The translations under genes and the position numbers were made by a program. From a virus (lineage: Duplodnaviria; Heunggongvirae; Uroviricota; Caudoviricetes): a stretch of 30,505 nucleotides of DNA. The DNA is taken from positions 1 to 30,505 of the IMG/VR virus record IMGVR_UViG_2565956726_000013. One strand, written 5' to 3'. Within the stretch, counting starts at the first letter, position 1; each line of letters starts with the position of its first letter. The notes beneath the pieces are model-generated. The model was not told where the DNA came from, searched no databases, and was given only the letters and a program-made list of their open reading frames with translations. This document shows positions 173-25,318 of this stretch, one piece after another.

Positions 173-1222
173 TTATGCAACCTCTGCCGCCACATTGTCG
201 CCAACATACAGCGATAACGGATTGAGGGTTACAGCTTGTTCAAGGTGGTCAGGAGCAAAGTGCGCATACTTCATTGTTTCTCGAATATTGGCATGTCCGA
301 GAATTTTCTGCAGCACCAGTATATTCCCTCCGTTCATCATAAAATGCGCACCAAAAGTATGACGCAAAACGTGCGTCTTCTGCCCTTCCGTCAATTCAAT
401 ATTCGTTAGTTTGAGCATCTTTTTAAACTCCTGATAGCAGGGTTTAAACATTCTGCCTTGACGTACGGACAACTCGTCGTACAGCCATTTAGGAATAGGA
501 ACTGTGCGATTCTTCTTACCTTTGGTTTTGGTGAACGTTAGTTTATATGGAGAAAGTTGAGGTCGGGTCAATCTCTCCGCTTCCCCCCATCGAGCGCCGG
601 TTGCAAGGCACACCTTAACAATCATGGTGAGGTCTTCTTTGCCGTATTGCTCGCAGGCTCGAAACAGCTCCGGGAGCTGAGACAAAGTTAGCCAGGACAT
701 TTCTTTCTCAGCTTCTTTGAATACTCGGATCCCATCAAGTGGATTGGGTAGGCTCCACTCCCCTAACCGGCGGAGCTCATTAAACACTGCTTCTAGGTAT
801 TGTTGTTCGCGATTGACGGTTATAGGTTTGGCGATCCATTTCGAGGGGTCTTTATGATAACCATTGTCTATTTCACCACGTAATCGACGGTCACGATAAT
901 GAGCCCAGTCTTTCGCGGTAAGGCGAGATGCAATCGGGTCGCCAAGTCCATTACATACGATTTGAAGCTTTGCAAACCTCGACTTACTGGCGACTAACGC
1001 TTGACCGTGCAAATTGTGCCAAAGCTGAATAATCTCGCTTAAGCGTCGGCGGTCTTCTTTCTTGCCGAGCCACGGCTTATCTTCACTCTCGCTTTTGGTA
1101 AATGCTTCAAATGCCTCGGCCTCACCTTTGGTATTGAACTGCCGACGTATACGCCGCCCTTCTCGACCATTTGGATAGAGTTCACACAACCATTTTCCAC
1201 TTTTTTGTTTACTTACAGTCAT
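173..1222 (-). CDS. int: Phage integrase, tyrosine recombinase (P2/186 family)
   Basis: 349-aa ORF; C-terminal region ...THVLRHTFGAHF...LGHANIRETMKYAHF... fits the tyrosine-recombinase catalytic box (R, H-x-x-R, Y); sits at the prophage edge next to the repressor operon. Confidence 0.9.
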   Translation of the reverse strand: MTVSKQKSGKWLCELYPNGREGRRIRRQFNTKGEAEAFEAFTKSESEDKPWLGKKEDRRRLSEIIQLWHNLHGQALVASKSRFAKLQIVCNGLGDPIASRLTAKDWAHYRDRRLRGEIDNGYHKDPSKWIAKPITVNREQQYLEAVFNELRRLGEWSLPNPLDGIRVFKEAEKEMSWLTLSQLPELFRACEQYGKEDLTMIVKVCLATGARWGEAERLTRPQLSPYKLTFTKTKGKKNRTVPIPKWLYDELSVRQGRMFKPCYQEFKKMLKLTNIELTEGQKTHVLRHTFGAHFMMNGGNILVLQKILGHANIRETMKYAHFAPDHLEQAVTLNPLSLYVGDNVAAEVA

Positions 1223-8326: not shown

Positions 8327-8342
8327 TGCGCGCAGCACACAC

Positions 8343-8371
8343 TTGCAATTTGATATTTTTGGTGTAAAAAA
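8343..8371 (+). promoter_or_regulatory. Putative sigma70-type promoter for the cargo operon
   Basis: TTGCAA (8343-8348), 17-bp spacer, TAAAAA (8366-8371), about 65 bp upstream of the first cargo ORF; weak -10, low confidence. Confidence 0.25.
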
Positions 8372-8435
8372 TCGGTGTCAATGAGTAGAAGATGAAAAAA
8401 TAATAACCAAAGGTTACTAAATCAAGGATGTGCCG

Positions 8436-9254
8436 ATGAAAGTTAGCTATGACGTTGTCATCAAAAGTGGTGATCAAGAAGTTGATATGGAGTATGGCCT
8501 TGATACCCTCTCTGGAACGGCTGAGGTGACATGCATACTAGCAGAGGCAATACTCAGAAAAAAAATTATTAAGCGCCGCACTCATGTTAACCCTGCGCGA
8601 GCGGTTCTCAAACAAAGCTTTAAAAGTTCTTATGGTCAAAACTTCGACTTGATTGTTAATGAGCCGGAATTAGCTGCCGAATTAAAAAAAATGACCCGTT
8701 CTGTGTTCTCGGAAGTCATGGGGTATTTTATTTCTGAATCTCTATATCTGGAAACTAAGGAGCTATCTCCAAAAGCTGCAGGAATTATTGAGGAGCTTGA
8801 GGAAATTGAAGATGAACTTATTGATCGTATCAGACAACCTTTGGTAAGGATGCATAGGATAAATCTTCAAAAAAACTTTGATGTTGAACTTAACTATAAA
8901 AAACCTGCTGGCAAACAAAGAATAGCAAAGTTAGACACAATGACTGCTACAAACTTGACACAATCAAAAATAATGCCCGGTCAAGTTAATATTAACGCAG
9001 TTATTACTCGATTTAATGCGAGAACTGGAAATGGTAGGTTAGTTATCGAAGGTGAAGATGATACAGTAGCCTTTGGTTTTTACATGCCTTTAAAGGCTAT
9101 ACCCGCCGCTCAAAAAAGATTGGTCTCATTAAATTTACACAATAATAATGGCAGGCAAGATAACTACACATATCTAAAACTTACTGTTAGTAAAGTTGTA
9201 GTAAAAAGTGGTGATGTGGTGAAATATCTAATCCGTATGGTTGAAACTGTATGA
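8436..9254 (+). CDS. Cargo protein A of a two-gene cassette (unknown function, soluble)
   Basis: ATG 8436 with RBS AAGGA 7 nt upstream (listed ORF starts at GTG 8430); 272 aa; AT-rich unlike the phage backbone; no Walker A or other motif recognised; stop overlaps the start of the next ORF. Confidence 0.7.
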   Translation: MKVSYDVVIKSGDQEVDMEYGLDTLSGTAEVTCILAEAILRKKIIKRRTHVNPARAVLKQSFKSSYGQNFDLIVNEPELAAELKKMTRSVFSEVMGYFISESLYLETKELSPKAAGIIEELEEIEDELIDRIRQPLVRMHRINLQKNFDVELNYKKPAGKQRIAKLDTMTATNLTQSKIMPGQVNINAVITRFNARTGNGRLVIEGEDDTVAFGFYMPLKAIPAAQKRLVSLNLHNNNGRQDNYTYLKLTVSKVVVKSGDVVKYLIRMVETV

Positions 9255-9976
9255 GAAAGGTGTTGCTGTCTTCGGCTGGCGTGATTGTAGCTGTGTGCGC
9301 CTTGTATTACTTCAACTTCGGAGTAAACGGACATTTATCCAGCAAGACTGATGTTTGGGCGCAGTTTGGTGATTATTTGGGTGGTGTCGTCAACCCTATA
9401 CTTTCATTTATTACAATTTACCTCCTTATAAATTCAATAAAACTTCAAAGGGAGGCTAATTCCAGCCTGATCGATGAAGTAAAAAGGCAAGAATCTTTAG
9501 AAGAGTATAAAAAATTTGAAGTGAGATTTTTCCATTTGGTTGAATGTCAGGATTCTAACTTTGAAAGGTTTTGTGTTCAAGTTGGTGATGTTGATGGACA
9601 AACTGACGGGGTGGTCGAAGAATTTACAAGTGGTGCAGCCGTAACTTATCTTGAAGATAATATTGTAATTTTAGTTAAAGCCAAGGTAAAAAAAGAGGTA
9701 ATAACAACGTGGTTAAGTGAAGTGGATGCTAATGATTGCATTTTTTCAGTGGTGCGTCGCTTTTATTTGATTGTGAAGTTGATAGATAATTGCGGGGTTG
9801 AACGGGAAGATTATTATGAAACATTAGTTAACTTAACTGACATAAAAATAATATCTTTAGTTGCAATGGCTTGTACATACTACGAGTGGGATATCGTAAA
9901 GTATATCCATGACAGTAAAATACTTGAACGAGATGGAGTTAAAGAGTTTGTTTCGCAAATATCCACTCACGATTGA
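9251..9976 (+). CDS. Cargo protein B of a two-gene cassette (membrane protein with two N-terminal TM helices, unknown function)
   Basis: ATG 9251 overlaps the upstream TGA (ATGA coupling); 241 aa; hydrophobic segments VLLSSAGVIVAVCALYYFNF and GGVVNPILSFITIYLLINSI, then a roughly 175-aa soluble domain; AT-rich. Confidence 0.7.
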   Translation: MRKVLLSSAGVIVAVCALYYFNFGVNGHLSSKTDVWAQFGDYLGGVVNPILSFITIYLLINSIKLQREANSSLIDEVKRQESLEEYKKFEVRFFHLVECQDSNFERFCVQVGDVDGQTDGVVEEFTSGAAVTYLEDNIVILVKAKVKKEVITTWLSEVDANDCIFSVVRRFYLIVKLIDNCGVEREDYYETLVNLTDIKIISLVAMACTYYEWDIVKYIHDSKILERDGVKEFVSQISTHD

Positions 9977-9977
9977 G

Positions 9978-9996
9978 AGCCGCCATGCTGGCGGCT
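9978..9996. terminator. Palindromic hairpin between convergent genes (possible bidirectional terminator)
   Basis: AGCCGCCA-TGC-TGGCGGCT, 8-bp perfect stem, between the cargo operon end (9976) and the portal gene 3' end (10007); no flanking T-run. Confidence 0.35.
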
Positions 9997-10006
9997 AGAG
10001 TGGTGA

Positions 10007-11053
10007 TTATTCCGGGTTATCGAGGGTGTACTCTTTGAACCTGATGACCTCCATGCCGAGCCAGTCGTTTACCTCCCTGAACCTGTCCTGTAGCGGCGAC
10101 AGCTCATTGCGCACAAATACCTTTGCCACCTTCTCAACGTCACCGAGTGAACCGATATTCTCGGGCTTGCCGCCCATGAGCTGGAACGGCACGCGGTGCG
10201 CGTCCATCAGGTCGGCGGCGCTGGCTTTCTTAATGTTGAAAAAGTCATCCTTTGTGGCGACCTCGCTCAGTGGCACGATTTTGATGCCGTCCGGTTTTCC
10301 GCCGGGGGCGTAGAAAAACAGGTTCTTAAAGTTGCCGAGTCCCTTCGAGTTACGCATCGCCTCGCGCAGCGATTCGACGTCGGTCGCACTTTGCGCCGGG
10401 TCAGTCACATACATGATGTAGCCTGCGTGCGCGCCGTTCTGATAATACTTGCGGCGGAACAGCGTCGCGGATTCATTCAGCCAAGCGGAATTAAGCGCGC
10501 TGAGATATTCCGGCAAACCGTAAATCTCCTGATTAATGTCGGGCTCCAGCAGGTGAAACACGGTATCAGGCGCGAACTCGTGCGGCTGGGTGAAGTTTTC
10601 CACAAACCAGAAAATCGAATCGTCGACTCCGCGTCGGGTGTATTTGGCTGGCGAGGCCAGCAGTTTGATTAACTGGCCGGTGACGCTGTGGCGCTGCTCA
10701 AGAAAGGCGTTACCGAACACCAGATAATCGAGCGCAAAGCGGCTGAAATCCTGACGGGATAACAACGGGTGCGGAATGTAGGTGCTCGCGAGCACGTTAC
10801 GCTTAACATAAATTGGCGAGCTGTGATGCACGGCAGAGCGCAGGCTCTTTGCCAGCCCTGAGAAGCTGACCGGCGGCTCGTACCATTTGCCGTTACTGAT
10901 GCATTCGACGTAATCCAGAATGTCGCGCTTATCGAGTACCGGCACCGGCTCGCCGAAGGTGAACGCTGTCGTTTTTGGCGGTGCGCTGGCGGTCAGTTGT
11001 TGTGGTTTGCTGGCCTTTTGTGCGTTGGCTTTACGGGATTTTTGTTTACCCAT
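10007..11053 (-). CDS. Q: Portal protein (P2 gpQ family)
   Basis: 348 aa; size, position directly upstream of the large terminase on the same strand, and overall similarity to P2 Q as recalled. Confidence 0.9.
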   Translation of the reverse strand: MGKQKSRKANAQKASKPQQLTASAPPKTTAFTFGEPVPVLDKRDILDYVECISNGKWYEPPVSFSGLAKSLRSAVHHSSPIYVKRNVLASTYIPHPLLSRQDFSRFALDYLVFGNAFLEQRHSVTGQLIKLLASPAKYTRRGVDDSIFWFVENFTQPHEFAPDTVFHLLEPDINQEIYGLPEYLSALNSAWLNESATLFRRKYYQNGAHAGYIMYVTDPAQSATDVESLREAMRNSKGLGNFKNLFFYAPGGKPDGIKIVPLSEVATKDDFFNIKKASAADLMDAHRVPFQLMGGKPENIGSLGDVEKVAKVFVRNELSPLQDRFREVNDWLGMEVIRFKEYTLDNPE

Positions 11054-18316: not shown

Positions 18317-18758
18317 GTTAACCGCACTGCAGGAACGCCTTGCCGGTCTGATTGCCAGCCTGTCACCGGCGGCGCGTCGGCAAATGGCGGCTGAGATTGC
18401 GAAAAAGCTGCGTACCAGTCAGCAACAGCGTATCAAGCGCCAGCAGGCACCAGACGGCACCCCGTATGCGGCACGAAAGCGCCAGCCGGTGAAGAGCAAG
18501 AAAGGTCGGATTAAACGTGAAATGTTCGCCAAACTGCGCACCAGTCGCTTTATGAAAGCCAAAGGCAGCGACAGTGCGGCGGTGGTGGAGTTTACCAGCA
18601 AGGTGCAGCGCATGGCGCGGGTGCATCAGTACGGGCTCAAAGACAGACCAAACCGCAACAGCCGGGATGTGCAGTACGAGGCGCGCCCGTTACTCGGTTT
18701 CACCCGCGACGATGAGCAGATGATTGAAGACGTCATTATCAGGCATCTCGGCAAATAA
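18309..18758 (+). CDS. S: Tail completion protein S
   Basis: 149 aa; MSELTALQERLAGLIASLSPAARRQMAAEIAKKLR... resembles P2 S as recalled; overlaps the R stop. Confidence 0.8.
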   Translation: MSELTALQERLAGLIASLSPAARRQMAAEIAKKLRTSQQQRIKRQQAPDGTPYAARKRQPVKSKKGRIKREMFAKLRTSRFMKAKGSDSAAVVEFTSKVQRMARVHQYGLKDRPNRNSRDVQYEARPLLGFTRDDEQMIEDVIIRHLGK

Positions 18759-18826
18759 ATATTGTGTGAACCACCACCGGAGCCGCGCGAATTGGCGCGA
18801 CTCCAGACCAGAGGCATCCTTGCACT

Positions 18827-19462
18827 ATGAATACGTTATCCACGATACAGGAGCTCGCGCGTGCGATTCGCAACCTCATCCGCTCAGGTGTGGTGACTGA
18901 GGTTGATACCGTGCAGGGGCTGTGCCGCGTACAAAGCGGCGGGATCCAGACTACATGGCTGAACTGGCTGACCACCCGCGCCGGTCGTTCGCGGACGTGG
19001 TGGGCTCCCTCGGTCGGTGAGCAGGTTCTGCTGCTGGCAATCGGTGGCGAACTTGATACCGCTTTCGTGCTGCCGGGTATTTTCTCCGACGATAACCCCG
19101 CCCCGTCTGCCTCGGCGGATGCGTGGCATGTGGCTTTCCCTGATGGTGCGGTCATTGAGTACGAGCCCGAGACCGGCGCGCTGACGGTCAGCGGTATCAA
19201 AACGGCCGACGTGACGGCATCGGAGTCCATCACTGCAACCGTACCGCTGGTACTGGTGAAAGCCTCGACCAGTATCACCCTCGACACCCCGGAGGTGATT
19301 TGCACCAATAAGCTGACGACAGCGACGCTTGAGGTACAAAAAGGCGGCAAGATGAGCGGCAATATCGAACATACCGGCGGGTCACTGTCGTCTAATGGCA
19401 AGGTACTCCACACCCATAAACACCCGGGGGACAGCGGCGGGCAAACGGGGACACCGTTATGA
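18827..19462 (+). CDS. V: Baseplate assembly/spike protein V
   Basis: 211 aa; position and size; first of the V-W-J-I baseplate block. Confidence 0.85.
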   Translation: MNTLSTIQELARAIRNLIRSGVVTEVDTVQGLCRVQSGGIQTTWLNWLTTRAGRSRTWWAPSVGEQVLLLAIGGELDTAFVLPGIFSDDNPAPSASADAWHVAFPDGAVIEYEPETGALTVSGIKTADVTASESITATVPLVLVKASTSITLDTPEVICTNKLTTATLEVQKGGKMSGNIEHTGGSLSSNGKVLHTHKHPGDSGGQTGTPL

Positions 19463-20721: not shown

Positions 20722-21322
20722 CCGGCTATTACCCGTTGGCTCGTCGCCGCTGGAGGTTGCCGCCGCTGCCGCGCTCTCTGAGATTCAGCGTGTGCCGGTA
20801 CCGCTGCGCACTCTGTGGAACTGGCGCACCTGCCCGGTAAAACTGCTGCCGTATCTGGCGTGGGCGCTGTCGGTCGACAGGTGGGATGAGAAATGGCCGG
20901 AGGCGACAAAGCGTAGCGTCTGCGCGTCCTCGTTTTTCGTCCATCAGCACAAAGGCACCATCAGCGCATTGCGTCGGGTGGTTGAGCCGCTCGGCTTTCT
21001 GATTGAAGTGCGCGAGTGGTGGCAGCTCAACGAGGAGCCAGGCACATTCCGCCTCGTTGTCGGCGTGCTCGATAGCGGCATTACTGACGAAATGTATCAG
21101 GAACTTGAGCGCCTGATTGAAGACGCCAAACCGGCAAGTCGCCACCTGACCGGGCTGGCTATCAGTCTGAGCTCGACCGGCGAACTGTATGTCGGCGCGG
21201 GATGCTATCACGGCGACGCGCTGACTGTTTACCCCTACACCCCCGAGGAGATTGTCGTCGGCGGTGAATATTACCCGGCCTCGGCCATCCATTTGATTGA
21301 TAACCTGAGAGTGAACGCATGA
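20714..21322 (+). CDS. I: Baseplate/tail protein I
   Basis: 202 aa; overlaps the J stop; precedes the tail-fibre gene. Confidence 0.8.
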   Translation: MSDRLLPVGSSPLEVAAAAALSEIQRVPVPLRTLWNWRTCPVKLLPYLAWALSVDRWDEKWPEATKRSVCASSFFVHQHKGTISALRRVVEPLGFLIEVREWWQLNEEPGTFRLVVGVLDSGITDEMYQELERLIEDAKPASRHLTGLAISLSSTGELYVGAGCYHGDALTVYPYTPEEIVVGGEYYPASAIHLIDNLRVNA

Positions 21323-22275
21323 CCGCAAAATATTTTGCCATTCTGACCAATCAGGGCGCGGCGCGGCTGGCGAACGCGGCGGCACTCGGTACCAAACTCA
21401 ACCTGACGCAGATGGCCGTCGGTGATGCGAATGGTACGTTGCCGACCCCTGACCCGGCGCAGACGAAGCTCATTAACCAGAAACGCATCGCGCCGCTGAA
21501 CCTGCTGACCGTTGACCCGGCCAATACCAGTCAGATTATCGCGGAACAGATTATTCCCGAGAATGAAGGTGGTTTCTGGATCCGCGAGATTGGTCTCTAT
21601 GACGATGATGGTATTCTGATTGCCGTGGCGAACTGTCCGGAGACCTACAAGCCACAACTGCAGGAGGGAAGCGGTCGCACGCAGACCATTCGCATGATTC
21701 TGATTGTGTCGAGCACATCGGCAATCACCCTGAAAATCGACCCGGCAGTCGTGCTGGCAACGCGCCAGTATGTCGACGACAAGATTATCGAGGTGAAAGG
21801 ATATGCTGATGACCTGATGAAAAAACATGTTGAGGCCGCCAATCCACACAAGCAGTACCCGTTAATCGCTAATGCTCTGAAAGAAATGGTTGACGCGGGA
21901 CTGGCCGGCGACGTTCTTAAAAACCTTGGTTTGGGGGAATTGGCTCTGGCTGGCGCAACAACCGGCGCTATGTTGGTGAATGGGTATGTAGCAATTCCAT
22001 TAATTATTTCTGGCGTTCGGAGACCACTTATTATCCAGTGGGGAGTGGGGCAGTTTGGGGGAAGTCTGGGGGATGATGCGGGATATTTAAACAATTTCCC
22101 TTTCGCTTTTCCGTCGGCGTGCTACGTGATGGTTGCCAGCCACGTGGGGCATACACCTTCGGGTGCCGGAATACTATCTGCTTCCGCAATCACAAAAAGC
22201 GGCTTTCGTGGTTTTTCCAGCGTAGCGACTGCCGCAAATCCTGTATCGGGCTGTTATGTTGCTATAGGAGGGTGA
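21319..22275 (+). CDS. H: Tail fibre protein H (conserved N-terminal part fused to the currently expressed variable C-terminal part)
   Basis: 318 aa; N-terminus MTAKYFAILTNQGAARLANA...GGFWIREIGLYDDDGILIAVAN resembles the P2 H N-terminus; much shorter than P2 H; a hix-like site lies inside the gene at 21914-21939. Confidence 0.8.
   Translation: MTAKYFAILTNQGAARLANAAALGTKLNLTQMAVGDANGTLPTPDPAQTKLINQKRIAPLNLLTVDPANTSQIIAEQIIPENEGGFWIREIGLYDDDGILIAVANCPETYKPQLQEGSGRTQTIRMILIVSSTSAITLKIDPAVVLATRQYVDDKIIEVKGYADDLMKKHVEAANPHKQYPLIANALKEMVDAGLAGDVLKNLGLGELALAGATTGAMLVNGYVAIPLIISGVRRPLIIQWGVGQFGGSLGDDAGYLNNFPFAFPSACYVMVASHVGHTPSGAGILSASAITKSGFRGFSSVATAANPVSGCYVAIGG
21914..21939. other. hix/gix-like recombination site (left boundary of invertible segment)
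   Basis: TTCTTAAAAACCTTGGTTTGGGGGAA; 20 of 26 positions match the reverse complement of the site at 23711-23736; half-sites resemble hixL (TTCTTGAAAACC). Confidence 0.6.
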
Positions 22276-22276
22276 T

Positions 22277-22711
22277 GTGTTTTTTAGTCCATCTTTAAAT
22301 ATTTTTGTGAATCCTGCGCTTAAGGATGACTACATCAATGTAAATTCATGGCCAGATGATGCTGTTGAAGTTGATGAGCAGGTGTATATTGAGTTTTCCG
22401 GATTACCGCCGAAAGGAAAAATCCGTATCGCTGGGGAAAATGGTTTTCCTGCATGGTCTGAAATTCCACCACCAACGCATGAGGAACAGATTGCCGCAGC
22501 CGAATTGAAAAAACAGCAATTGATTAATCAGTCCAACGAATATATGAATACCAAGCAATGGCCTGGTAAAGCGGCTATTGGTCGTCTGAAAGGTGAGGAA
22601 CTGGCGCAATATAATTTGTGGCTGGATTATCTGGACGCACTGGAACTGGTTGATACCTCCAGTGCTCCAGATATTGAATGGCCTACGCCTCCGGCAGTTC
22701 AGGCCAGATGA
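22277..22711 (+). CDS. G: Tail fibre assembly protein (Tfa/gpG family)
   Basis: 144 aa; C-terminus LDYLDALELVDTSSAPDIEWPTPP is a Tfa-type signature; apparent GTG start. Confidence 0.75.
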   Translation: MFFSPSLNIFVNPALKDDYINVNSWPDDAVEVDEQVYIEFSGLPPKGKIRIAGENGFPAWSEIPPPTHEEQIAAAELKKQQLINQSNEYMNTKQWPGKAAIGRLKGEELAQYNLWLDYLDALELVDTSSAPDIEWPTPPAVQAR

Positions 22712-23276
22712 CATCCGGCGCGGTGCTCGTATCTGTTGCCGTCACCGCGTCAATGTAATCAAGCACGGCGTTAAGCCGGGTGGTTTCTGCCTGCGTCAGC
22801 TTCCGCCCGGCCTGTAATTTCAGCTGAATCAGACTGATGGAAGCCATTGCAGCATCAATCAGTGACTGGCGCTGTGCTTCTGCCGCTTCTACTGCGGCAC
22901 CGTGTTGTGCCTCAGTATCTGTCACCCATTTCTCACCATCCCATTTATCGTATGGCGTTAACGGTGAAAGCGTGACATAACCGTCTTTGATGGCACCGAT
23001 ATAACCCACTGTAACAGCTGCGCCATTTTCAGTTGAGTAAACGGTCTCATTGCGATGGTCTTCTTCATGGCTCCATCCCTTACCCGTAAATACTGCCACT
23101 TTTCCCGGAATGTTTTCGCCAGGGTCAATACCAGTGGAACAGGCGGGCATACTTACGCCAGTATTAATATATTCATCAGACCAGCCCGTATACTCAGATG
23201 TTTCAGCATCATAATAAAAACAACGCATATCGCCCGGCACTGTAGCCAGCCCATTTTCATCAAAAACAGGTTTCAT
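22683..23276 (-). CDS. Alternative tail fibre assembly protein (Tfa', inverted orientation)
   Basis: 197 aa; C-terminus LDYIDAVTATDTSTAPDVIWPELP parallels G; 3' end overlaps G convergently, as for U/U' in the Mu G segment. Confidence 0.7.
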   Translation of the reverse strand: MKPVFDENGLATVPGDMRCFYYDAETSEYTGWSDEYINTGVSMPACSTGIDPGENIPGKVAVFTGKGWSHEEDHRNETVYSTENGAAVTVGYIGAIKDGYVTLSPLTPYDKWDGEKWVTDTEAQHGAAVEAAEAQRQSLIDAAMASISLIQLKLQAGRKLTQAETTRLNAVLDYIDAVTATDTSTAPDVIWPELPEA

Positions 23277-23728
23277 TATTTAGCCCTCACCACAAAGTTA
23301 AATGCAATATTTCGCGGTCTGACAGCAACAAAATTCACACCATCACCCACAGAGTTACTGGTGAAATTAAATCGTGAAAATCCTGGCTGATTTCCGGCGA
23401 TGCCATCATGAAAGTTAATTGCGTGTCCCGCACCTCCGCCTATATTCCCGGCAAACTGAGAAAAGTTTGTAGCTTCCTGCCAGCTTAATAATTCGCGACC
23501 ACCATCGGCACCTCGCCCGTCATCCCAGATACGAATGAAATCACCGCGGGCTTCAGGTAATACCAGTGAAGGAAACACTTTCGCCAGCACAGGGTAATCA
23601 GAGGCAGAAAATTTCGCCCCGTTGAACTTCAAAAACACCATACTGGACCAGCTGTCGATTACAGTATTTGGCATTGCAGCGGACGGCCAGAAGAACGGAA
23701 CGCCAATAGCTGGAGCACCTTCTCCCAA
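23276..23728 (-). CDS. Alternative tail fibre C-terminal (receptor-binding) cassette, silent in this orientation
   Basis: About 150 codons with no ATG or RBS of their own; the 5' end coincides with the hix-like site; in frame with the H constant region after inversion (see findings). Confidence 0.6.
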   Translation of the reverse strand: MGEGAPAIGVPFFWPSAAMPNTVIDSWSSMVFLKFNGAKFSASDYPVLAKVFPSLVLPEARGDFIRIWDDGRGADGGRELLSWQEATNFSQFAGNIGGGAGHAINFHDGIAGNQPGFSRFNFTSNSVGDGVNFVAVRPRNIAFNFVVRAK

Positions 23729-23736
23729 ACCAACCT
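23711..23736. other. hix/gix-like recombination site (right boundary of invertible segment)
   Basis: TTCTCCCAAACCAACCTTTTAGAAAA; inverted-repeat partner of 21914-21939. Confidence 0.6.
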
Positions 23737-23799
23737 TTTAGAAAACGCAGATATTCCGTTCAGCTGGCATGATCCCGACTTTTTACCGGGTTATTTCTC

Positions 23800-24000
23800 A
23801 TGTTTATCGGTTATGTACGTGTATCAACAAATGACCAGAACACCGCATTACAGCGAAATGAACTGGAGTGCGCAGGATGTGAGCTGATTTTCGAAGATAA
23901 AATCAGCGGCAAAACATCAGACTGGCCGGGCTAAAGAGGTTACTCAGAACCTTGTCAGAGGGCGATACGCTTGTGGTCTGGAAACTGGATCGCCTCGGGT
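23800..24000 (+). pseudogene. Degenerate DNA invertase (Hin/Gin/Cin serine-recombinase family), frameshifted and truncated
   Basis: Encodes MFIGYVRVSTNDQNTALQRNELECAGCELIFEDKISGKTSDWPG then a stop; the +1 frame continues LKRLLRTLSEGDTLVVWKLDRLG; compare Hin MATIGYIRVSTIDQNIDLQRN...IFEDRISGK...PGLKRAL...GDTLVVWKLDRLGRS. No remainder of the catalytic domain or C-terminal HTH follows. Confidence 0.75.
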
Positions 24001-24051
24001 ATCTCAACGCTATACAAAAAATTTCCCGCATCCGTTGCTGATGTCTCAATG

Positions 24052-24076
24052 TGTCAGACATCGCCCAACACTGACA
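24052..24076 (+). promoter_or_regulatory. Putative late-promoter activator dyad upstream of FI
   Basis: TGTCAG-N13-CTGACA inverted repeat about 65-90 bp upstream of the FI start, resembling the TGT-N12-ACA element of P2 late promoters (spacing off by one; low confidence). Confidence 0.25.
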
Positions 24077-24139
24077 AATAGCCCCTCAACAGACCAGCCA
24101 GGACAATAACACTTGCCCACTAACCACGGAGTTAACCGG

Positions 24140-25318
24140 ATGAGTGATTTTCACCACGGCGTGCAGGTGCTTGAGATTAACGACGGCACCCGCGTCATTT
24201 CCACTGTTGCAACCGCAATCGTCGGCATGGTCTGTACAGCCAGCGATGCGGATGCGGCAACCTTTCCCCTCAACGAGCCGGTACTGATTACCAATGTGCA
24301 AAGCGCCATTGCGAAAGCCGGTAAAAAAGGCACGCTGGCCGCGTCCCTGCAGGCCATCGCCGACCAGTCAAAACCTGTCACAGTTGTCGTGCGTGTTGCC
24401 GAAGGTACCGGAGAAGACGCCGAAGCGCAGACCATTTCCAATATCATCGGCGGCACGGATGAGAACGGTAAATATACCGGCATCAAGGCGCTGTTGACTG
24501 CCGAAGCAGTCACCGGCGTTAAGCCGCGCATTCTCGGCGTGCCGGGTCTCGATACCAAAGAGGTCGCAGTCGCACTTGCTTCGGTCTGTATCAGCCTGCG
24601 CGCCTTTGGCTATATCAGCGCATGGGGTTGTAAAACCATTTCCGAGGCGATGGCCTATCGCGAGAATTTCAGCCAGCGCGAGCTGATGGTCATCTGGCCT
24701 GATTTCCTTGCATGGGATACCACCACAAACGCCACCGCACCGGCATACGCAACTGCACGCGCACTCGGCCTGCGTGCCTATATCGACCAGACCGTCGGCT
24801 GGCACAAAACCCTGTCTAACGTCGGCGTGCAGGGTGTTACCGGCATCAGTGCGTCAGTGTTTTGGGATTTGCAGGCATCCGGCACCGATGCTGATCTGCT
24901 CAACGAGGCCGGGGTCACGACACTGGTGCGTAAGGATGGCTTCCGCTTTTGGGGTAACCGCACCTGCTCTGATGACCCGCTTTTCCTGTTTGAGAACTAC
25001 ACCCGCACCGCGCAGGTGCTGGCCGACACGATGGCCGAGGCGCACATGTGGGCGGTCGATAAGCCCATCACCGCATCACTTATCCGTGACATTGTCGACG
25101 GCATTAACGCCAAATTCCGCGAGCTGAAATCAAACGGCTACATCGTGGACGGTGAATGCTGGTTCGACGAGGAATCGAACGATAAGGAAACCCTCAAGGC
25201 CGGGAAACTGTATATCGACTACGACTATACACCGGTTCCACCACTGGAAAGCCTGACCCTGCGCCAGCGTATCACCGATAAATATCTGGTGAATCTGGCC
25301 GAATCGGTCAACAGCTAA
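24140..25318 (+). CDS. FI: Tail sheath protein FI
   Basis: Start at ATG 24140 (MSDFHHGVQVLEINDGTRVISTVATAIVGMVCTASDADA...) almost identical to the P2 FI N-terminus as recalled; listed ORF starts at an upstream TTG. Confidence 0.9.
   Translation: MSDFHHGVQVLEINDGTRVISTVATAIVGMVCTASDADAATFPLNEPVLITNVQSAIAKAGKKGTLAASLQAIADQSKPVTVVVRVAEGTGEDAEAQTISNIIGGTDENGKYTGIKALLTAEAVTGVKPRILGVPGLDTKEVAVALASVCISLRAFGYISAWGCKTISEAMAYRENFSQRELMVIWPDFLAWDTTTNATAPAYATARALGLRAYIDQTVGWHKTLSNVGVQGVTGISASVFWDLQASGTDADLLNEAGVTTLVRKDGFRFWGNRTCSDDPLFLFENYTRTAQVLADTMAEAHMWAVDKPITASLIRDIVDGINAKFRELKSNGYIVDGECWFDEESNDKETLKAGKLYIDYDYTPVPPLESLTLRQRITDKYLVNLAESVNS

Follow-up and report, generated by a model that had tools for sequence, protein, structure and literature searches.

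An invertible tail-fibre segment beside a dead invertase gene in a P2-like prophage, probably still inverted in trans

Does an invertible host-range segment stop switching once the invertase gene beside it has died? The question is raised by the tail-fibre operon in IMG/VR virus record IMGVR_UViG_2565956726_000013 (Caudoviricetes), the 30,505 nucleotides of which, positions 1 to 30,505, are called the window here. A preliminary description of this DNA recognized in it a Mu/P1-style invertible tail-fibre segment that determines host range and lies next to a decayed invertase gene, and considered the switch probably locked unless an invertase elsewhere in the genome acts in trans. The first part of that description is borne out by the form of the crossover sites, two alternative C-termini in frame, two chaperone genes, the remnant of a Pin-type gene and about 95% identity to modules with intact invertases. 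The second part has to be divided: the lock probably does not hold, and the branch that invokes an enzyme in trans is favoured, for prophages with the dead invertase allele are found in both orientations. In this study, we propose that the window carries a host-range inversion switch of the Pin/Gin/Cin/Hin type in a P2-like tail-fibre operon, the segment of which is very probably still inverted in trans at some rate.

The segment is bounded by two inverted 26-bp sites, each with 12-bp half-sites around a 2-bp core, TT on the left and its reverse complement AA on the right, which is the arrangement of the Hin/Gin/Cin/Pin (Din) systems (coordinates and sequences of all features are collected in Table 1). 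The left site lies exactly where it was first reported; the right one had been put at 23711-23736, where only 5/26 positions match, and its true place is 9 bp further right, at 23720-23745, where the reported inverted match of 20/26 positions does hold. According to a repeat finder the site pair forms the longest inverted repeat in 21300-24200, with arms of 40 nt (21912-21951 and 23708-23747) that are 73% complementary. Such a match is not above chance by itself, as 20/26 was reached in 26/60 and 29/40 in 3/60 dinucleotide shuffles of the 2.9-kb region, and the inverted repeat was accordingly rejected as significant on the raw count. The pair is counted as real because its form matches known sites, because of its position, and because natural alleles have recombined exactly there. 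The exact crossover-site pattern AAACCNNGGTTT occurs a single time in 30.5 kb, at the left site, and the resemblance to hix-like sites noted at the outset was confirmed by a hand count, in which the left site was identical to the left site of the P segment of element e14 in strain K-12 at 22/26 positions and the right site to the right one at 23/26; the repeats that hold these e14 sites have been shown by experiment to support inversion. As for position, the left site coincides with the boundary between the constant and the variable part of H, and the right site lies 67 bp upstream of the invertase start codon. A third crossover site, as in a shufflon-like system, was sought and rejected, since no more than two places in the segment and its surroundings fit the pattern.

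The genes between the sites are those first described, with an H C-terminus and G on the plus strand and a second Tfa gene and a C-terminal cassette on the minus strand, as confirmed by Pfam and PHROG matches. The constant part of H stays outside the invertible segment, is transcribed from upstream and is the same in a naturally flipped allele from E. coli E1535. The minus-strand cassette was called promoterless, in agreement with which no promoter-like site was found on the minus strand of the segment. It also lacks a start codon of its own, and an in-frame TAA stands just beyond the right site; its phrog_3100 match (ORF 23276-23728, minus strand) covers only the C-terminal part of the profile, positions 212-381 of 382, and in relatives RefSeq labels it 'phage tail protein, missing N-terminus'. 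Because of the missing promoter-like site and the in-frame TAA outside the right site, the cassette should be silent until it is flipped. The equivalence of the reading frames across the two sites was borne out by a simulated flip at the core, which joins ...KNL to GLGEGAPAIGVPFFWPS... and yields an in-frame H of 354 aa reading ...KNLGLGEGAPAIGVPFFWPS..., and this predicted fusion is the annotated H of E1535, in which the cassette that is silent in the window forms the H C-terminus. Two C-termini in frame with one constant N-terminus, each accompanied by its own chaperone gene, are thus present, as in tail-fibre inversion systems. The two converging tfa genes overlap by 29 bp at their 3' ends (22683-22711), an overlap annotated in all relatives, and no terminator-like structure was found between them.

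The gene downstream of the right site is a remnant, clearly of Pin-family ancestry by its sequence, and an intact adjacent serine recombinase of about 185-200 aa with Ser10 and a C-terminal helix-turn-helix is missing from this place. Its residues 1-67 are about 76-77% identical to Gin, and relatives carry it in RefSeq as 'recombinase family protein; frameshifted; incomplete'. The RVSTNDQ motif and the frameshift after codon 44 were correctly described at first: relative to intact relatives one base (-1) is lost in the G run 23928-23930, which leaves a 44-codon ORF from 23800. The truncation after about 68 residues was not upheld. Codons 1-67 are kept (...DRLG, to 23999), about codons 68-170 (about 103 codons) are deleted at a junction around 23997-24003, and 24004-24078 encodes the invertase C-terminal tail STLYKKFPASVADVSMCQTSPNTDK in another frame, followed by a stop, so that the last 25 codons survive (24004-24081). 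A MAFFT alignment had likewise suggested a 3'-truncated gene, and this was rejected on the frame-3 translation and on a tblastn search with PinE, which matched residues 1-44, 43-67 and 171-180 in the window. The internal deletion takes out the greater part of both the catalytic and the DNA-binding domain, and judged by these lesions the window's own invertase gene is dead.

The deletion is neither peculiar to the window nor young. Of 5,426 complete E. coli genomes, 35 have its junction, GATCGCCTCGGG|TATCTCAACGC, and alignment of the alleles distinguished three sub-alleles: the deletion with no further lesion in EC6622 (the gene of TW10598 is likewise annotated as incomplete, not as frameshifted), the deletion with the -1 G in the window, EC1, E1535 and others, and the deletion with a 4-bp ATCA duplication (+4) in strain 222 and in prophage 613R3. 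It therefore appears that the deletion is old, that the later lesions arose independently, and that decay has been going on since. Phage vB_EcoM-613R3 was considered as proof that a phage with the dead allele is viable and was rejected, as it is listed among phage sequences located in the genomes of clinical isolates and was treated as an in-silico prophage.

Fourteen loci with the dead allele, the window included, were considered, and two groups among them could be compared for orientation. Group A comprises E1535, E1739, N21 and JKHS016, from sources that include Argentina, Bangladesh and Japan; they hold one prophage at one chromosomal site beside rplS/trmD, with 6-9 substitutions in 33 kb among the members, and all four carry the dead allele, with the segment flipped in E1535. 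The segments of E1535 and N21 are identical at 1808/1808 bases, inverted. The recombinant sites of E1535 read TTCTTAAAAACC TT GGTTTGGGAGAA and TTCCCCCAAACC AA CCTTTTAGAAAA, with the inner halves swapped, and because these inner half-sites differ around the core, the exchange can be placed within TTGGTTTGGG, a stretch of 10 bp that includes the core TT. In group B, which has a different cassette pair and the same dead allele, KE40 is compared with EC1, AF46, GMM076 and DETEC-S565; the segment of KE40 is identical to that of EC1, AF46 and GMM076 at 1935/1935 bases, again inverted. Both orientations therefore exist among near-identical prophages with the dead allele, and inversion by exchange at the core has taken place in natural alleles of the window's relatives.

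It might be argued that the opposite orientations are assembly artefacts or arbitrary choices of the assembler, since an assembled orientation reflects only the majority of the reads. We regard this as extremely unlikely: no assembler should be misled by repeats as short as 26-40 bp, the junctions are cleanly recombinant in two unrelated sets of strains from different laboratories, and a culture with both orientations would be proof of active inversion in itself. Homologous recombination of the general, RecA type, without a site-specific invertase, would have the 40-nt inverted repeat at 73% identity to work on, and seems very unlikely too. The longest perfect identity between the two arms is the same 10-bp stretch, TTGGTTTGGG, and 10 bp of identity is below the minimal homology for RecA-dependent exchange; moreover, the exchange in E1535 fell exactly in this stretch, which holds the invertase core, in sites that match known Pin sites.

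A locked fossil deserves more weight, although it is unlikely as well. On this account the two orientations predate the death of the invertase, and the dead allele later reached both when prophages exchanged DNA by homologous recombination. Several facts would fit: the invertase has without question lost its function, with no second serine recombinase in the window, mosaicism is plain to see in P2-like prophages, and the outer half of the right site is degenerate. The account needs, though, a transfer of the dead allele or the inheritance of both orientations in each of two cassette groups, with the prophages staying almost identical throughout, and it has to be reconciled with the few substitutions that separate the group A prophages at their common integration site and with segments that are 100% identical; the three sub-alleles make the deletion older than those very recent differences. 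Two independent and very recent flips on the one hand, and an invertase long dead on the other, make an enzyme in trans the best explanation.

That an invertase acts in trans is something we infer from sequence, and candidates for it are at hand. When a marker query was extended by the 351-bp 3' part of pinE that is missing from the dead allele, it matched 3 places instead of 1 in E1535 and 4 instead of 2 in E1739, and therefore two further pin-like loci are expected on each of these chromosomes. The e14 site icd and the site ssrA were considered as the seat of a trans-acting invertase in E1535, and both were rejected: icd is unoccupied, and the island at ssrA has a 518-aa recombinase and no P2-like prophage. 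In this island (L024:4560-6116) the 518-aa 'recombinase family protein' and two ParB-like genes lie beside the integrase gene, and we take the protein, by its length alone, to be a large recombinase and not a Pin-type invertase. In TW10598, the dead allele is at rplS, and an intact invertase of 188 aa, 84% identical to PinE, is encoded in a second P2-like prophage 27 kb away.

Both prophages of TW10598 show peculiarities of their own. In the one at ssrA (L023:35542-36496) the left site reads ...GGTTTGGGGAAT, one G shorter than that of the window, and H is annotated as two pieces; this prophage has an intact invertase, but in the orientation that was assembled its H is interrupted at the crossover site. 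In the one at rplS (L023:1913-7000) a 156-aa 'phage tail protein' ORF borders directly on the terminase gene, and the whole block of capsid, lysis and baseplate genes and the constant part of H are gone, which reads as a large deletion that ended, on one side, near the left crossover site.

Action of an invertase on the segment of another element has precedents. It is said that Pin of e14 complements gin of Mu, and a second invertase, Fin of Fels-2, reportedly has a part in the phase variation of Salmonella flagella by acting on the Salmonella hix sites. Inversion has also been followed in prophages of E. coli. For the e14 P segment, inversion by PinE has been shown experimentally, as has inversion in trans by PinQ, an enzyme of the Qin prophage (PMC12529663), and inversions at the tail-fibre loci of P2-like prophages in EPEC E2348/69 have been seen by sequencing (PMC4272514).

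An invertase supplied in trans would still need the elements that act in cis, and these appear to have been spared. In Hin, Gin and Cin, the Fis-dependent enhancer reportedly lies inside the 5' end of the invertase gene, as described in 1985. The 5' remnant of the window holds a predicted enhancer with two candidate Fis sites (Table 1). A 20-nt block, GTATCAACAAATGACCAGAA, which starts at 23821, is shared by the window, Mu gin and four genes for pin-type invertases with at most one variable position (the third, A or G), and five consecutive codons in it have invariant third positions. By hand count, the proximal candidate Fis site and the core of the right site lie about 96 bp apart; in Hin the proximal Fis site is about 100 bp from hixL (PMC3798978). 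The surviving 200 bp may thus still hold the enhancer, which would be a likely explanation of how inversion remains open to the dead allele.

The following course of events is proposed. Late transcription would enter H from upstream and read its first 202 codons, which lie outside the segment. A Pin-family invertase made by another prophage in the same cell would bind both sites, with Fis at the enhancer, make staggered cuts at the TT/AA cores, rotate one pair of half-sites and rejoin the DNA, so that the 1808-bp segment comes to lie inverted. The gp53-like C-terminus and the 144-aa chaperone would thereby be exchanged for the alternative C-terminus and the 197-aa chaperone, or the reverse, and the product would alternate between an H of 318 aa and one of 354 aa. 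The parts needed in cis are apparently intact, namely both crossover sites and the 5' 200 bp, the place of the Fis-dependent enhancer in this invertase family. If Mu, P1 and carotovoricin are a guide, each form of H should recognize a different receptor, and a change of host range is presumed. The anatomy of the segment, the in-frame fusion and the lesions of the invertase gene, on which the proposal builds, are directly observed.

Several points weigh against continued inversion in trans. Both flips are comparisons between assemblies of relatives, and are neither observed events nor events in the window's own host. The tblastn search with PinE found no other serine recombinase in the window, and the two extra pin-like loci of E1535 are at neither icd nor ssrA, the two places inspected. 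All carriers of the dead allele have CCTTTTAGAAAA as the outer half of the right site (23734-23745 in the window), as against CGTTTAAGAAAA or CGTTTATGAAAA beside intact invertases (including L002 and L003, the ECJXMCRH7 and EC43 loci described below); this half is further from the GGTTT form than in these relatives, and the efficiency of inversion could be lower. The enhancer was recognized by homology, and the conserved synonymous positions show no significant excess over the enhancer stretch (6/18 versus 5/30 codons).

The module from 21920 to 23999 appears as one unit in other elements; it comprises the two cassettes with their chaperone genes, the right site, the inner part of the left one and the initial 200 bp of the invertase gene. 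It is 95% identical to its counterpart in an e14-like element with intact pinE in EC43 (L003), and 96% identical to that in a P2-like prophage of ECJXMCRH7 (L002) that encodes an intact invertase of 197 aa. By these matches it is a mobile, shared module of a well-known kind.

We tentatively raise the possibility, though it is rather doubtful, that the 35/5,426 genomes with the dead allele, which carry at least five cassette sets, represent a 'free-rider' lineage of P2-like prophages that has lost the invertase and keeps both sites and the 200-bp enhancer fragment under selection, with its switching dependent on co-resident Pin-family invertases. If this were true, switching would be tied to the prophage content of the cell, and perhaps to induction of an invertase during phage attack, as reported for PinQ. 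Apart from this possibility, there is a practical side for annotators: where a 'frameshifted, incomplete recombinase' adjoins a tail-fibre segment, that segment should not be taken as fixed, and the H of one assembly is one of two states, such that a prediction of host range or of tailocin specificity needs both. The locus would be a natural example of an invertible segment that has no enzyme and is still flipped, with co-resident Pin-family invertases as shared functions of the cell, and it offers a clean natural substrate (sites and putative enhancer, no enzyme) for the cross-specificity of PinE, PinQ, Gin and the P2-like invertases. No new mechanism is involved; the system is an ordinary one and would not surprise a specialist, and what is mildly new is only that a widespread P2-like lineage would keep a working switch without an enzyme of its own.

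Judged by its gene content, the window is almost a whole P2-like prophage, which opens with the integrase gene (173-1222, minus strand) and the CI repressor gene, continues with the genes for head, lysis and tail, and ends with gene D. The P2-like (Peduoviridae) late-gene order V-W-J-I-H-G followed by FI-FII-E-T-U-D and the P2-type capsid and terminase module, together with the integrase and CI repressor genes, are all present by ORFs and Pfam matches. In the ORF listing FI runs from the first TTG (24113-25318), and its ATG at 24141 was read from the sequence. Most of the window is collinear with annotated P2-family prophages of E. coli at 96-99% identity; the exact prophage is absent from the complete E. 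coli genomes, in which the best match has a query coverage of 91-92% and about 97% identity.

Three places in the window depart from its relatives. The region 215-2143, with the integrase, DUF2511 and CI repressor genes, shares only 78% identity with prophages to which most of the remaining window is 96-99% identical, and because of this the window appears to be mosaic, its module for immunity and integration differing from theirs. Two adjoining ORFs of 274 aa and 241 aa lie at 8430-9976 on the plus strand, with the replication module on one side and the portal gene on the other, in a stretch (8337-10007) that has no match in the E1535-type prophage and is occupied by unrelated DNA in relatives. 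Pfam and PADLOC gave no match for the two ORFs, and their only hits, phrog_13337 and phrog_8999, are PHROG families without a known function; the ORFs are candidates for accessory or defence cargo in a hotspot that varies among P2-like phages. The gap between the tail-completion genes and the baseplate gene V (18715-18845) measures about 130 bp in the window versus about 1.2 kb in E1535-type relatives, where the insert holds a gene for a pentapeptide-repeat protein on the opposite strand.

Table 1. Features of the invertible tail-fibre segment and its borders (window coordinates)
Feature	Position	Strand	Evidence or remark
H, whole ORF	21319-22275	+	318 aa; tail-collar N-terminal and gp53-like C-terminal domains
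H constant N-terminal part, codons 1-202	21319-21925	+	PF12571 tail-collar, residues 1-150, E = 9e-63
Left crossover site, TTCTTAAAAACC TT GGTTTGGGGGAA	21914-21939		core 21926-21927
Invertible segment	21926-23733		1808 bp core to core
Expressed variable H C-terminus	21928-22275	+	gp53-like PF21882, residues 237-317, E = 8e-12
G/tfa assembly chaperone, 144 aa, partner of the expressed C-terminus	22277-22711	+	PF02413 Caudo_TAP, E = 3e-35
Second tail-fibre assembly chaperone, 197 aa, partner of the silent cassette	22683-23276	-	PF02413, E = 6e-28
Silent alternative H C-terminal cassette	23276-23731	-	phrog_3100 tail-fibre, E = 3e-51
Right crossover site, plus strand TTCTCCCAAACC AA CCTTTTAGAAAA	23720-23745		core 23732-23733
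Pin/Gin-family serine invertase pseudogene	23800-24081	+	PF00239 Resolvase on residues 3-41
Predicted Fis-dependent enhancer in the 5' remnant	23821-23884		candidate Fis sites 23821-23835 and 23870-23884; by homology
Tail sheath gene FI (marks the right-hand end of the module)	24141-25318	+	RefSeq 'phage tail sheath protein' in relatives

Among known systems, those with multiple inversions (the Rci shufflon, Min of p15B and the three-site P2-like locus of EPEC) have more than two sites, whereas the window has only two. The P segment of e14 in K-12 is closer. Its sites, CTCTCGAAAACC TT GGTTTGGGAGAA and TTCTCCCAAACC AA CGTTTATGAAAA, have the same form and the same TT/AA core, and its layout is the same, with a constant 5' part, a variable part with tfa, a converging tfa with a variable part, and the invertase gene. 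It differs in that the segment sits in element e14 and not in a P2-like prophage, with stfP as the constant part in place of P2 gene H; the cassettes of K-12 e14 differ as well, and only part of one tfa gene is 88% identical to that of the window. While PinE of e14 is a working invertase, the gene in the window is a pseudogene.

Mu (Gin) and P1 (Cin) follow the same logic, with a constant N-terminus, two C-termini each with an assembly protein, and 26-bp sites, and have the invertase gene directly downstream with the enhancer inside it (the sequence compared was that of Mu). The core is TC/GA in Mu as against TT/AA in the window, the segment of 1.8 kb in the window is smaller than the G segment of Mu (3 kb) and the C segment of P1 (4.2 kb), and both phages have an invertase in cis, whereas the window has no functional one. 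In P2-like prophages with intact invertases (ECJXMCRH7, the ssrA prophage of TW10598, phage pro483 and EPEC E2348/69), the segment has the same position as in the window, between H/G and FI. These prophages encode invertases of 188-197 aa, unlike the window, and the constant part of the ECJXMCRH7 H shares only 78% identity with that of the window. Further parallels are the cases of action in trans (PinQ on e14, Fin, and Pin with gin), in which a segment is flipped by the enzyme of another prophage, as proposed here. In those cases the target usually keeps an invertase of its own, whereas in the window the cis enzyme is gone, and therefore any inversion must come about in trans.

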